Shown here piece after piece: positions 24,993 to 32,684 of a stretch of DNA of 33,198 nucleotides; within the stretch, counting starts at the first letter, position 1; every line of letters begins with the position of its first letter. The DNA comes from Promethearchaeota archaeon (GTDB lineage Archaea > Asgardarchaeota > Lokiarchaeia > Sigyniarchaeales > SOKP01). The position numbers and the translations under genes are program-made. Location: assembly GCA_048940925.1 (NCBI GenBank), contig JBHLOC010000029.1, positions 1-33,198 of the forward strand. The letters are read 5' to 3'. Below the pieces are notes generated by a model, which was not told the DNA's origin, made no database searches, and worked only from the letters and a program-made list of their open reading frames with translations.

Positions 24993-26501
24993 TCAATCTA
25001 ATTTTTGTAATAATCTTAATAAAAAGTTCCAAATTTTTTCTACAGATTTTACTAATAAACGTTCCTCGGGCGAATGAGCGCCCTCATTTCTAGGACCAAT
25101 TGAGATCATTTCCATATGAGGAAATTTTTTCTTTAAGATACCACATTCTAGTCCCGCATGAATTGCTTTCACAAGTAATTCATTATTGAATAATTGACGA
25201 TAAGCATCTTTAGTTAAAGTTAAAAGTTTTGAGTTAAAATTAGGTGTCCATCCAGGATAATCACTATCAATTATAGTCTCAACATTTAAACCGGTTAAAT
25301 TAATCAAAGAATTAGTTTTTTCCCAAATCACATTTTTGAAATATTCACTTAAGCTTCTTTGACTTAACTTTATTACAACCTTATCTTTTTCAGTCTTTAT
25401 AACCGCTAAATTTGATGATGAAAAAACAAGATCCCTTATTTTTGGGTGCATAGAAAGAGGACCATTCGGAATTGTATACAGGATATTAAGTAAGTTATTT
25501 TGAATTAGTTTTGTTAATACTTTCTTATTATCATAATTTGTTAATCTTTTAATTGATATATTGATGTCAGGGTCGATACCCTCAAAAAGAATTTTAATTT
25601 TCATAAGTTGATCTAAAATAAACTCTTTTACCTTCAAAAATTCATCTTCTCTTACAAAGAAAATAGCACTGGCTTCTCTAGGTATAGCATTAGTTCTATT
25701 ACCACCATTAATAGATGCAATATTCATCATAAAATTGTGGTTTAATTTCCAAAGTATTTGTCCTATAATTTTTAATGAATTTCCCCTTCCTATATGAATA
25801 TCTACCCCTGAATGCCCTCCAATTAAACCAGAAACAAATAATTTTATTGGAATTAGGTTTTCATTCTCATTAATATTAATAGTGTCTTTACTTATACGAA
25901 AAAAAGTTACTATCCCACCTGCACAACCTATCGTTACAGCATCTTCATCTTCAGCATCTAAATTTATTAGAAAGTCACCACTAATTAAATTATTATCGAT
26001 TTTAAAGGCACCACGTAAACCCATTTCCTCATCAACAGTAAATAATAAATCAAATCCAACTGATTCGTAATCAAGTTCTCCATCATGAATTTTTTTCATC
26101 AATGCTAATAAATAACAAATACCAACTCCATTATCTGCACCTAATGTAGTTCCTTCTGCTGTTACCCATTTTTCATTCTCAATTTCTATAATTTTTATTT
26201 TTAATGGATCGATAGAAAAATCGTGAATACTTTCTTCATTCTTTTCACACACCATATCCATGTGACATTGTAATACTATATTGTACTTTTTCATAGTTTT
26301 AGCTGGAATTCTCACTACTAGATTTCCTGCAATATCAACTTGAGTTTTAAATCCTAGCCTCTCTGCCTCTTCTTTTATGAAAGCTCTCACTTTTTCTTCA
26401 TGTTCAGAACACCGAGGGATTTTTGTAATTTGCTCAAAATATTCCCAAAATTCAAGAGGTTTGCTTAACTCTTTTAAATTTAACAAAAAAATCGCTTCCA
26501 A
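24993..26501 (-). CDS. pepD: Aminoacyl-histidine dipeptidase PepD (M20C); exact start uncertain
   Basis: IPRCSEHE, LQCHMDMVCEK, TTLGADNGVG, TVDEEMG, NLDAE, GGHSGVDIH, YPGW.PN, IHAGLECG, AHSPEE. Confidence 0.93.
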   Translation of the reverse strand: MEAIFLLNLKELSKPLEFWEYFEQITKIPRCSEHEEKVRAFIKEEAERLGFKTQVDIAGNLVVRIPAKTMKKYNIVLQCHMDMVCEKNEESIHDFSIDPLKIKIIEIENEKWVTAEGTTLGADNGVGICYLLALMKKIHDGELDYESVGFDLLFTVDEEMGLRGAFKIDNNLISGDFLINLDAEDEDAVTIGCAGGIVTFFRISKDTININENENLIPIKLFVSGLIGGHSGVDIHIGRGNSLKIIGQILWKLNHNFMMNIASINGGNRTNAIPREASAIFFVREDEFLKVKEFILDQLMKIKILFEGIDPDINISIKRLTNYDNKKVLTKLIQNNLLNILYTIPNGPLSMHPKIRDLVFSSSNLAVIKTEKDKVVIKLSQRSLSEYFKNVIWEKTNSLINLTGLNVETIIDSDYPGWTPNFNSKLLTLTKDAYRQLFNNELLVKAIHAGLECGILKKKFPHMEMISIGPRNEGAHSPEERLLVKSVEKIWNFLLRLLQKLD

Positions 26502-27716: not shown

Positions 27717-27759
27717 ATGATCTCTGATTTTCAATAAGAATTTATAGGTGAATATTGAT

Positions 27760-29048
27760 ATGGTAAATTTACAGAAAATATTTGAAGAAGTTGATAATTT
27801 GGATAAAGAAAGAATCATGAGCATTATAAGAACTCTCGTACACGTTAATATAGTCGTTCCGCCAGGTGATTCTTATAGAGAATATGTAGATGCATTATCA
27901 CCTTTTTTTAAGGATCTTAATTTTTGTTTAGAAGAAGTTATTGTTCCAGAAGAGTGTGTTAAACAGATTCCTTATCCTTTAGAAGGACCTCGGATTAATT
28001 TAATAGCAAATAAAGATTTTGGTAAAAAAAAATTCATATCTTTTTATGGTCATATGGATGTTGTACCGGCTCCAAATGAAGGAGCATAAAGATGGCGATT
28101 TCCTCCATTTGAAGCTACAATAATTAAGAGTGGGAAAATTTATGGACGTGGAGTTGGAGATATGAAGGGTGCAATGGCTTGTTTGATTTTAGCACTTCAG
28201 CGTATAGAAAAACTAAACCTTATGCCAAAATATAATGTTCAAGTATTGAACTGTACAGACGAGGAAATTGGATTTTATCCTGGAATTCGATACTTAGCAG
28301 AACATGGTTATATTAAAGGGACCCTTTTTTCGATGGATTATACGGTTGAGCCAATTATTTTAATGGGCTCAGCAGGTGATTTAGAAATAGAGATTCAAAC
28401 AATAGGTAGAAGCTCTCATTCCGGATTAAATGTATTAGGTATCAATGCTTTGGAGGAAATGATACCAATTTTGGTAGAACTTAAAAAATTGAAAGAAGAA
28501 GTGGAAACTCGTCAAAGTAAAGATATTCCTGGATTTCCAGACCCTCAATCTGGTGAAAAACGTAATTTAACTCCCCTTTTTAACTTGGATATAATAAAAT
28601 CAGGTGACAAATCAAATATTATCTCAGATATTTGTTCATTAATAATTAATAGACGAGTCATACCAGATGAAAATATTCAAGAAGTAAAACAAGAAATTAT
28701 AGATGCTGTAGAAAGAGGTAAAGCGAAAAGTAATGCATTAGATGTAAAAATTTCCTTTAAATATCCCTATCCTCCTTTAAAAGTAGATATTAACAGTTCA
28801 GAAGTACAGAGGATTCAAAAGTGATTAAACTTGTACATATAATTCCAGAGGAAAAAATTCGAAAGACTGGAATGAGTATTACATTTGATGCTGGTTTTGT
28901 AGCTCAAATCTTAAAAACTCAAGAGGTTATTCTTCGTGGTGTTGCCACCGGGGGATCCAATACTCATGGAGTAAACGAAACAATTAGATTAAAAGATATA
29001 AAAAAATTAATTAAAGAAATAATAGTTTTTTTATGCGCTGATTTATAA
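27760..29048 (+). pseudogene. Disrupted M20/ArgE/DapE-family metallohydrolase (in-frame TAA at 28087-28089 and a frameshift at 28817-28824)
   Basis: FYGHMDVVPA-(stop)-RWRFPPF...IYGRGVGDMKG continues in the same frame; DEE, GRSSHSG; C-terminal FDAG...NTHGVNE lies in the -1 frame; SD AGGTGA precedes ATG 27760. Confidence 0.85.
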
Positions 29049-29308: not shown

Positions 29309-29726
29309 TATTATTAAACTCCTTTCTGTTCTTACATTCTAATTTTTGATTTTTTTAATAAATTCTATCTTTGATAATAGTATAAAAAATATAAATTTCG
29401 TTTTTATTATCAAAAATTAATGTTGGAGAATTATTTTTAGATTTTTGACATTCGATTTTTTATAATGAGAATATAATTGAAATATCTTTTATCAATGAAA
29501 ATCTAGTTAAAAATAAGTAGTAAATGAGGATTTCAGTTCTAATTACTTTTAAACAATAAAACTTTTACTTTATATTAAGAATTTTTCTTTTAATTCATAC
29601 TCAATATCAAGAAAGTATAGAATGGTTTTAATTTAATAATTTTTTAAAAATCATATTAAACATAATAATTGTTTAAATTTTATATAATATAACAAAAATG
29701 ATAATTATTTGAGGAGTTGAGTTACA

Positions 29727-30053
29727 ATAGCAAAAGATAAGATTATTGGTGCCATTGTAATGATCATTGGTATTATAATTGCCATTGTTTATACTATGGG
29801 CTCAATTGTCGATCTTGCTTTCAATACTATTTGGAATAATCCAGGATGGGATGATTGGACTAGGATCTTTGGTATTAATTGGTTAGACTGGAGATTGTTC
29901 GTGGTTCTACCTATGTGGTTAATTGTTATTTTAATTTCAATTATCGCAATCTGGATTGGTTATTCCATGCTGACGACCCCTGCACCAGTTCCCTTAGAGG
30001 AGCTCGAGGAAGAATTGGCTGCAGAAGAGGAATCTGAAGAATCTGGAGAATAA
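29727..30053 (+). CDS. Small 2-TM membrane protein, DPM2-like (dolichol-phosphate-mannose synthase regulatory subunit-like); probable ATA start at 29727, first ATG at 29760
   Basis: In-frame upstream extension (I/M)AKDKIIGAIV after SD GAGGAG (29711-29716); DKIIG...IVYT and VLP...IWIGYSMLTT resemble DPM2 DQxxG...YYT and AIP...FISYVMLKT; acidic tail. Confidence 0.6.
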   Translation: MAKDKIIGAIVMIIGIIIAIVYTMGSIVDLAFNTIWNNPGWDDWTRIFGINWLDWRLFVVLPMWLIVILISIIAIWIGYSMLTTPAPVPLEELEEELAAEEESEESGE

Positions 30054-31249: not shown

Positions 31250-31924
31250 TTGAAAGAAGAAAAAATTCTCGCTAGAAGAAGTACGACATTAAGAAAAAAT
31301 AACTCTAAAGATTTAATTATTAATTTAAATCAAATAAACTTCAAAAATATTTTTCTAATTAATGGAACACAGTTTCTAACTAAGAATATATCAAAATCCC
31401 ATTTAATCGTTAAACCTCATGATTTTTATATGATATTTAATCATGAAGAAAAACCAATCACAGTTACATATAATCAAGATATTTCAAAACACCCAATTAT
31501 CTACGATCCATTCAAATATGAATACTCAGAAAGAATTGATTTAACACCTGAAATGTTTTTTGAGAGATATGATATACCAAAAAACTATGTTAGCACACTT
31601 CCCAAATGGTATAGTTTTAAATTTTCATATTCTAATTATAATCTGATTTTTTTACGTCCTGAATTCGGACTTTCAATACAAATTCATAAAGATAGAAATG
31701 AATTCTGGGAAATTTTAGAAGGTGAACCGATCTTAATTATTGGAAATAAAGTACATTATTTTGTACAAAGCGGAACCAAGTTGCAAAATCCAAGAAATTC
31801 ATATCATTCTATAATCAATCCTAATAAGCAGAAAAACAAATTTGTTATAATAAAAGAGAAGTGGACTGGAAAATTCGACGAAAATGATATAGAAAGAGTT
31901 TTTAATCCCAATCATTATGAATAA
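31250..31924 (+). CDS. Cupin protein resembling the type II mannose-6-phosphate isomerase C-terminal domain, with unknown N-terminal region (TTG start)
   Basis: LSIQIHKDRNEFWEILEG, YHSIIN, GKFDENDIERV (cf. LSLQxHxHRxEHW, HRLxN, GEDDIVR). Confidence 0.7.
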   Translation: MKEEKILARRSTTLRKNNSKDLIINLNQINFKNIFLINGTQFLTKNISKSHLIVKPHDFYMIFNHEEKPITVTYNQDISKHPIIYDPFKYEYSERIDLTPEMFFERYDIPKNYVSTLPKWYSFKFSYSNYNLIFLRPEFGLSIQIHKDRNEFWEILEGEPILIIGNKVHYFVQSGTKLQNPRNSYHSIINPNKQKNKFVIIKEKWTGKFDENDIERVFNPNHYE

Positions 31925-32150: not shown

Positions 32151-32684
32151 ATGGCTCCTGAAGAAGAAAATAATAAAGAACTTGAAGAAGAATTAGAAAA
32201 GGAAGAACCTACTAAAGAAATTGTTGAAGAATTCGAAGAAAAAGAAGGAGAAAGAGAATTAGATACCGAAGCAGAGCTAGATCGACTTAGATTTAAATAT
32301 AGAGGTTATACATTAGAGGATTTAAAGAAGATGAATATGGATCAATTCATTCAGCTATTACCAGCTAGATCAAGACGTTCATTAAAAAGAGGATTGCCTC
32401 CAAGACAAAAAAAGTTGCTCGAAAGGCTAAGAAGGGCATATCGAGCTAAAAAAAGAGGTAAAGATTTAATTACAAGAACTCATATACGCGATATGATAGT
32501 TTTTCCTGAAATGTGTGGGCTTAAAATTTCAATTTATAATGGAAGAGATTATACACCTGTTGAAATTCGCCCTGAAATGATTGGTCATTATCTTGGGGAA
32601 TTTTCTTTAACTAGAAAGAGAGTACAACACGGTTCGCCGGGAATAGGAGCCACTCGAAGTTCTAAGTATGTTCCACTAAAATAA
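32151..32684 (+). CDS. rps19p: 30S ribosomal protein uS19 (S19p/S15e type) with acidic N-terminal extension
   Basis: [62 protein letters not shown]. Confidence 0.97.

Follow-up and report, generated by a model that had tools for sequence, protein, structure and literature searches.

A 108-amino-acid protein encoded by an Asgard archaeon is best read, on sequence comparison, as a relative of the eukaryotic pair DPM2 and PIG-P. The explanation that best accounts for the evidence is that it probably acts as a non-catalytic membrane subunit of a dolichol-phosphate (Dol-P) sugar synthase, with an inferred partner enzyme. The gene lies in a stretch of 33,198 nucleotides (the window) from a genome of 4.8 Mb with roughly 28% GC that is 100% complete.

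DPM2 is the regulatory subunit of the eukaryotic Dol-P-Man synthase and a component of the GPI-GlcNAc transferase (in yeast, Yil102c-A), and PIG-P, or Gpi19, is a subunit of the GPI-GlcNAc transferase; both are usually described as eukaryotic ER proteins. In humans, DPM2 and DPM3 supply the membrane part of DPM1, providing anchoring and a lipid groove, and DPM3, which has two membrane helices and a cytoplasmic helix, is the membrane tether of DPM1.

The homology of the archaeal protein to DPM2 and PIG-P is not new, as it is already contained in a large-scale dataset and in automatic names, so that the interest of the archaeal family lies in its function and its partner. In a 2025 Nature study that dated gene duplications, “DPM2 and PIGP” appear among the pre-LECA duplications with an archaeal origin, so that PIG-P is treated there as a paralogue of DPM2; in the supplementary table of the study, the PF07297 tree, which holds both proteins, stands under an Asgard sister (PMC12872463). 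An archaeal cluster in the ESM Atlas has been automatically named [quoted passage not shown]. In the literature searched, we found no study of the free-standing archaeal protein, experimental or other, and none that names it in the main text among the Asgard “eukaryotic signature proteins”. Its relatives are inconsistently named in databases, appearing as hypothetical proteins, as “predicted DNA-binding transcriptional regulator” and as “BrkB/YihY family”.

Reading frame and translation start

The following features define the gene and the signals at its 5' end:

29727..30053, forward strand: coding sequence of the 108-amino-acid DPM2/PIG-P-family protein, stop codon counted in
29711..29716, forward strand: Shine-Dalgarno-like GAGGAG, 10 nt 5' of the ATA, read directly from the sequence
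29727..29729, forward strand: probable non-canonical ATA start codon, from comparison with homologous loci

The frame is bounded upstream by an in-frame TGA (29718-29720) and ends with a TAA stop (30051-30053), both on the forward strand, and its first ATG lies at 29760, downstream of the ATA at 29727. An earlier interpretation made from the sequence alone (the sequence-only reading) had quoted protein strings from this locus, and these were confirmed to be in frame at 29727-30053 on the forward strand; the residues gained by starting at the ATA (AKDKIIGAIV) are exactly those that it quoted. A word-indexed search of Asgard metagenome bins returned 586 close homologues with 73-85% identity, which bear Promethearchaeota or Lokiarchaeota names, and a reading frame with this many homologues at such identity stands far above chance.

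Across 47 homologous loci, the codon at the start position is ATG in 42, ATA in three, ATC in one and TTG in one, the ATA carriers being the window and two congeneric genomes. A strong GGAGTTGA box is present upstream of the gene in all five non-ATG genomes (the window and four others), and it is the genus subclade with this ribosome-binding box that uses ATA (3 genomes), ATC (1) and TTG (1); the 42 ATG loci have a weaker AAAGGT-type box instead. Among 30 close relatives, 11 of the 18 variable sites in codons 2-12 fall at third positions with the residues kept. As these codons vary mainly at third positions without changing the protein, the N-terminal extension is taken to be translated, and initiation at the ATA is the simplest reading of the start. 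As a separate observation, the third-position GC content of the small gene is 0.34, compared with 0.16-0.21 in six neighbouring genes including those for S19 and L22, a difference that could stem from codon choice linked to expression or from a constraint acting on the mRNA.

Architecture of the protein

The protein consists of two transmembrane helices and an acidic C-terminal helix. An AlphaFold2 (AF2) model built on a 105-sequence alignment reached a mean pLDDT of 86.7 and placed helices at residues 3-35, 55-83 and 90-107. The segments map to the window as follows:

29733..29831, forward strand: transmembrane helix 1, residues 3-35 (AF2 model, Asgard alignment)
29832..29888, forward strand: Trp-rich loop (alignments A2 and A3; AF2 pLDDT 62-68)
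29889..29975, forward strand: transmembrane helix 2, residues 55-83 (Pfam DPM2 match, alignment, AF2)
29973..29993, forward strand: TTP-x-P-x-P linker, residues 83-89 (alignment A2)
29994..30047, forward strand: acidic C-terminal helix, residues 90-107, LEELEEELAAEE... (AF2 pLDDT about 90; conserved)

A conserved K-D-K-x-x-G precedes helix 1, in which K5 and G8 are invariant in the 24 Asgard sequences of alignment A2, with G8 invariant in the broader alignment A3 as well. The Trp-rich loop, which differs in length and sequence among lineages, is followed by helix 2 with its invariant residues P62 and W76-I77-G78-x-x-M81, and by the linker, in which T83, T84, P85, P87 and P89 are all invariant in A2. 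The TTP-x-P-x-P motif is also kept in Bathyarchaeia and other Thermoproteota, and throughout the family WIG[YW][ST]M-x-TTP-x-P-x-P shows little or no variation. Written as a signature, the N-terminal part of the family reads M-x-K-[DE]-[KQ]-x-x-G, followed by helix 1, by a loop that varies and by a P where helix 2 begins; the C-terminal part reads W-I-G-[YW]-[ST]-M-x-T-T-P-x-P-x-P-[LI]-E followed by an acidic tail.

The tail is predicted to lie in the cytoplasm, as relatives carry C-terminal fusions to HhH and DUF4332 domains. Both termini would then be cytoplasmic, the Trp-rich loop would face outside, the TTP-x-P-x-P linker would lie at the cytoplasmic end of helix 2, and the acidic helix may be a cytoplasmic docking element. 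The natural fusions of the two-helix module are rare (P0194, 289 aa; P0262, 166 aa), carry DUF4332/HhH or HhH domains, and may be the reason why relatives have been called “transcriptional regulator”. A search for longer forms returned one match of 269 aa on a contig of 985 bp, which is probably a read-through.

Profile evidence for a DPM2/PIG-P relative

The sequence-only reading had proposed a DPM2-like protein on the basis of landmark residues shared with human DPM2. On its own, the window protein matches DPM2 (PF07297) below the cut-off (14.8 bits, E 0.036; cut-off 27.3), with its residues 59-83 aligned to profile positions 47-71 with no gap, a stretch that holds the “P ... Y.ML.T” landmarks. 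Its top Pfam match is PIG-P (22.4 bits, E 1.2e-4; cut-off 39.3), covering profile positions 7-85 of 121 and thus both helices and the loop, and it also matches Holin-X (15.3 bits, E 0.02) and, over helix 2 only, DPM3 (13.4 bits, E 0.09). Support for the DPM2 reading came through its orthologues from further Asgard lineages. Using hmmscan, the orthologue G001 matched the Pfam DPM2 model with 54.3 bits (E 1.7e-14), twice the cut-off of 27.3, and the orthologue G303 matched it with 42.3 bits; both matches span profile positions 2-71 of 75, which is the full length. The window protein is linked to the 54-bit orthologue G001 by a BLASTP match of 37% identity (E 2e-9). One family member, P0128, clears both cut-offs, with 32.6 bits for DPM2 and 39.8 against 39.3 for PIG-P, and the PIG-P cut-off is just passed by two members, with 40.1 and 39.8 bits (P0190 and P0128).

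When 105 diverse members were compared with all 24,736 Pfam families, only PIG-P, Holin-X and DPM2 recurred at E<=1e-3. PIG-P was matched by 49 members (best 2.3e-10), Holin-X (PF07332) by 37 (best 2.4e-6) and DPM2 by 25 (best 1.7e-8). The PIG-P matches end at about profile positions 85-101 of 121, leaving about positions 100-121 unmatched, and the match of the orthologues to the DPM2 model covers protein residues of about 4-74, stopping short of the TTP-x-P-x-P linker and the acidic helix.

Matches that rest on a pair of membrane helices may be spurious, a problem for which the Pfam model of PIG-P has been named in particular (PMC2912341). As the literature contains this warning, whole-genome six-frame scans with the Pfam models were run on 81 Asgard genomes together with 14 control genomes, with the following results:

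DPM2 (PF07297): 29 of 81 Asgard genomes, 19 over cut-off, best 54.3 bits; 0 of 14 controls
PIG-P (PF08510): 34 of 81 Asgard genomes, 0 over cut-off, best 38.6 against 39.3; 0 of 14 controls
Holin-X (PF07332): 14 of 81 Asgard genomes, 0 over cut-off; 6 of 14 controls

The DPM2 matches fell on the gene of the A3 family in every case in which coordinates were compared, and the Holin-X matches fell mostly on other genes. The DPM2 signal, with over-cut-off matches in 19 of 81 Asgard genomes and none among 14 controls, thus goes beyond the generic transmembrane similarity that the sequence-only reading had named as what would refute it. Membership of the DPM2/PIG-P family is well supported by these comparisons, with the whole signal residing in the membrane helices, and the family appears to be about equally related to PIG-P.

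A sequence search of the PDB with the family profile and with P0128 found no DPM2 or PIG-P chain, so that there seems to be no relative of solved structure, and Foldseek against the PDB returned nothing at E<=0.001. Ranked by probability, its top rows were ArnC (prob 0.51, E 3.8) and GtrB, matched at their membrane hairpins; as two-helix hairpins are unspecific, this offers a hint only. Searching the ESM Atlas by shape and features gave archaeal clusters as the nearest, one of which has PF07297 on 11% of its members. No NCBIfam family was matched.

Conservation in Asgard archaea and Thermoproteota

The family is close to universal in the two groups in which its spread was sampled, Asgard archaea and Thermoproteota, and is very strongly conserved. 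Of 400 Asgard genomes scanned with a narrow profile, 313 gave a match. Asgard genomes, together with a search of 1.84 billion cluster representatives that returned 365 matches at E<=0.001, then served to build a broad profile (A3). This profile matched clearly, at 1e-15 or better, in 29 of 30 additional Asgard genomes, which represent 26 families, and weakly in the remaining one. An apparent absence from one Asgard family (f13, 0 of 31 genomes) proved to be an artefact of the narrow profile, as the four f13 genomes tested with the broad profile matched at 1e-15 to 1e-21. In Thermoproteota, 279 of 301 evenly sampled genomes matched the broad profile, usually with one or two copies, and more than 485 stretches from Bathyarchaeia were confirmed separately.

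No paralogue of the small protein was found in its own genome. Some Asgard genomes have a second, diverged copy of up to about 150 aa that adjoins the main one, and the TTPxPxP tail is missing from some of these copies. The diverged second copies are located at:

L034:5420-5878
L035:4543-4995
L036:3471-4013
L044:6634-6993

Candidate partner enzymes

The genome contains six GT2 genes, and for three of them (289, 278 and 300 aa) the best solved relative is the Dol-P-Man synthase of Pyrococcus (5mlz), with E-values of 1.6e-27, 1.4e-21 and 1.5e-12 and with the catalytic and interface region covered. The open reading frames of these DPM-synthase-like GT2 enzymes are:

C87:67557-68423 (GT2-a)
C87:45983-46816
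C45:96766-97665

A hydropathy scan identified no membrane domain in any of the three, the third having one borderline internal segment. The genome therefore encodes DPM1-like GT2 enzymes with no membrane helices, as in a type-II synthase, and the C-termini of these membrane-less enzymes are strongly basic. The best of them (289 aa) sits between two polytopic membrane proteins of 1046 and 729 aa (L137:5961-12815, G000:C87), which could be enzymes that use lipid-linked sugars. Some Lokiarchaeial relatives of the DPM-synthase-like GT2 (P0331 and P0363, 481-485 aa) are fused to hexapeptide-repeat domains, a left-handed beta-helix of the type typical of sugar nucleotidyltransferases or acetyltransferases.

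DPM3 (PF08285) gave no match at E<=0.1 in this 100%-complete genome, and the system is for this reason not classed as a full type-II Dol-P-Man synthase complex. Searches of the same genome gave no match to the PIG-A-specific domain (PF08288) or to PIG-C/GPI2 (PF06432), the latter being a weak negative, since that model is silent in control genomes too. When the small protein and the best of the DPM-synthase-like GT2 enzymes were co-folded (alignments A3 and A6), the score was 0.00, which carries no weight either way.

Gene neighbourhood

Within the window, the small gene is followed on its 3' side by genes for a PfkB kinase, a cupin with a mannose-6-phosphate isomerase domain and the ribosomal proteins S19 and L22, these last two housekeeping proteins being its nearest conserved neighbours. 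The cupin gene lies 1.2 kb downstream of the small gene, and a homologue of it stands beside the small gene in five loci of the order:

31250..31924, forward strand: cupin whose C-terminal domain is of the mannose-6-phosphate isomerase family (PF01050, 27.9 bits; cut-off 23.6)

Two further features of the window concern other genes. An M20-family peptidase appears to be split over three frames (27748-28089, 28162-28824 and 28821-29048, together 27748-29048), the second of which contains an M20_dimer and a partial Peptidase_M20 domain; this may be a frameshifted gene or a pseudogene, and an intact M20 gene is located at 24993-26501 on the opposite strand. The S19 frame (32151-32684) encodes 177 aa with the Pfam S19 domain only on residues 76-160, and it has either a long N-terminal extension or a true start further downstream.

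Among 37 Asgard loci, drawn from many families, 12 have S19 nearby and nine have a phosphomannomutase/phosphoglucomutase. Examination of 149 neighbouring open reading frames from 29 non-redundant loci identified about 15 with PGM/PMM, MannoseP_isomer, NTP_transferase, PGI/PMI, GT4 or GT2 domains, so that sugar-activation and glycosyltransferase neighbours look enriched relative to a rough expectation of ~1%, a comparison that is uncorrected for relatedness and made with no matched control gene. In one Asgard family, the small gene is found within a glycosyltransferase cluster, 27 nt downstream of a membrane-less GT2, and in one complete Thermoproteota genome a DPM-synthase-like GT2 is positioned 60 nt upstream of it.

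Genes of sugar activation and of dolichol glycosylation also recur nearby. In 9 of 40 Thermoproteota loci the directly adjoining gene encodes a sugar-1-phosphate nucleotidyltransferase, in seven of them at distances of 3-88 bp and in two with matches that overlap the target frame, and in two Asgard families such an enzyme is encoded 4 and 92 bp from the small gene. The best solved relatives of the adjacent nucleotidyltransferase are UDP-glucose pyrophosphorylase and mannose-1-phosphate guanylyltransferases. Another Thermoproteota lineage has a divergent cis-prenyltransferase gene 48 bp away, with a sugar aminotransferase, a GT2 and an AglH-type transferase within 6 kb, and three further lineages have GlmS and GT1 or GT4 genes nearby. 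In Bathyarchaeia, ahcY (S-adenosylhomocysteine hydrolase) is the neighbour in 69 of 80 loci, which is uninformative on glycosylation. The small gene is found there about 78 bp downstream of ahcY on the same strand, often after an amidohydrolase gene (L056-L135), and the pairing is very stable with no obvious functional link.

Comparison with characterized synthases

The archaeal protein resembles DPM2 in its size class of about 80-110 aa, its two membrane helices and, as predicted, its cytoplasmic ends, and its clear orthologues are homologous to the family model. Membrane-less catalytic GT2 enzymes paralleling human DPM1 are present in the archaeal genome as well. The family differs from DPM2 in the invariant TTP-x-P-x-P linker and acidic helix that follow helix 2, and the genome differs from the eukaryotic DPM2 system in that no DPM3 was found. 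To PIG-P the window protein is likened by its top Pfam match over both helices and the loop, whereas the C-terminal part of that model is unmatched and neither a PIG-A domain nor PIG-C was detected in the genome. The likeness to DPM3 is one of analogy, as both have two membrane helices followed by a cytoplasmic helix able to hold a soluble catalytic subunit; homology to DPM3 (PF08285) is not claimed, the Pfam match being faint.

In the type-III Dol-P-Man synthase of Pyrococcus furiosus (5mlz), membrane helices 1 and 3 resemble DPM2, two helix pairs correspond topologically to DPM2 and DPM3, and the interface helices and TMH4 touch the isoprenoid chain (Gandini et al., PMC5526996). The hairpins of the Pyrococcus synthase are fused to the enzyme, whereas in the archaeal family described here a gene of its own encodes the hairpin. 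Neither sequence nor fold comparison gave a significant match between the small protein and the 5mlz membrane domain, and comparison of the family profile with the membrane hairpins found at the C-terminus of some GT2 enzymes revealed no similarity.

Proposed function and alternatives

Under the explanation that we favour, the protein would form a two-helix hairpin in the membrane beside a glycosyltransferase that loads sugar onto dolichol phosphate, most likely one of the three membrane-less, DPM-synthase-like GT2 enzymes of the genome. It would supply the membrane part of that enzyme, providing anchoring and a portion of the lipid-acceptor groove, in analogy to DPM2 and DPM3 in the case of human DPM1 and to the membrane domain that is fused to the Pyrococcus synthase. 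The end of the protein that comprises WIG-x-x-M, TTP-x-P-x-P and the acidic helix may be the cytoplasmic docking piece, and we speculate that the invariant linker and the acidic helix dock onto the enzyme with its strongly basic C-terminus. Such a subunit could also have a regulatory role in a Dol-P-Man synthase, as was proposed in the sequence-only reading.

Several observations stand against this explanation. The window protein falls below both Pfam cut-offs, the DPM2 match leaves out the linker and acidic helix that are the best-conserved part of the family, and no DPM3, PIG-A-specific domain or PIG-C was found in the genome. The nearest conserved neighbours in the window and in Bathyarchaeia are housekeeping genes, and the family profile does not resemble the hairpins of membrane-anchored GT2 enzymes. 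Moreover, all similarity lies in the two membrane helices and their linker, and matches of this kind can mislead. If the likeness to DPM2 and PIG-P were generic two-helix similarity, the protein could be an unrelated membrane protein, for example an anchor for a cytoplasmic factor, which we consider quite unlikely. The restriction of the similarity to membrane helices, the published warning on the PIG-P model (PMC2912341), the Holin-X matches in 37 of 105 members (best E 2.4e-6), the inconsistent names of relatives and the rare HhH and DUF4332 fusions would all be in keeping with such a protein. Against it, the DPM2 matches are full length, reach twice the curated cut-off and fall on the family gene wherever coordinates were compared, with 0 of 14 controls matched, and the Holin-X matches never exceed their cut-off and mostly lie on other genes. 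The recurrence of glycosylation and dolichol neighbours in unrelated lineages argues in the same direction and is independent of any sequence match. A PIG-P-like subunit that takes part in transferring GlcNAc onto an inositol lipid, as the first step of a GPI-like or glucosaminyl-archaetidylinositol pathway, is very unlikely. PF08288 and PF06432 were not found in the 100%-complete genome (with the PF06432 negative being weak), the whole-genome scans gave 0 PIG-P matches over cut-off compared with 19 for DPM2, and the PIG-P model has its positions of about 100-121 unmatched, even though PIG-P is the top Pfam match of the window protein (E 1.2e-4) and is matched by 49 of 105 members, and even though two lineages have GlmS, an enzyme feeding UDP-GlcNAc synthesis, in the neighbourhood.

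The protein could also be a true relative of DPM2 and PIG-P that tethers or organises a different enzyme of the pathway, either the nucleotidyltransferase or the dolichol-making cis-prenyltransferase, and this too is unlikely. Its invariant cytoplasmic tail resembles a docking site for a soluble protein, and the adjacency of the nucleotidyltransferase (9 of 40 Thermoproteota loci and two Asgard families) and of the divergent cis-prenyltransferase (48 bp away in one Thermoproteota lineage) would be expected of such a tether. Adjacency to nucleotide-sugar genes is, however, equally expected for a subunit of an enzyme that consumes nucleotide sugars, neither gene is adjacent in the lineage of the window itself, and the known members of the family, DPM2 and PIG-P, are subunits of glycosyltransferase complexes (established knowledge and PMC5526996). 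The reading as a membrane subunit of a Dol-P-sugar synthase remains our preferred one.

Extending this reading to the origin of the family is more tentative. It is possible, if doubtful, that the family represents a single ancestral membrane subunit of the membrane-less Dol-P-sugar synthases of archaea, combining a DPM2-like hairpin with a DPM3-like tether made of the TTP-x-P-x-P linker and the acidic helix. If so, the ancestor common to Asgard archaea and Thermoproteota would already have had both the division of the eukaryotic ER enzyme into several subunits and the adaptor from which DPM2 and PIG-P later arose by duplication.

Finally, if the protein is the membrane partner of Dol-P-sugar synthases in archaea, a function could be assigned to a widely conserved hypothetical protein, and the question would be testable in cultivable Thermoproteota. 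The multi-subunit design known from eukaryotes would in that case date to before eukaryotes.
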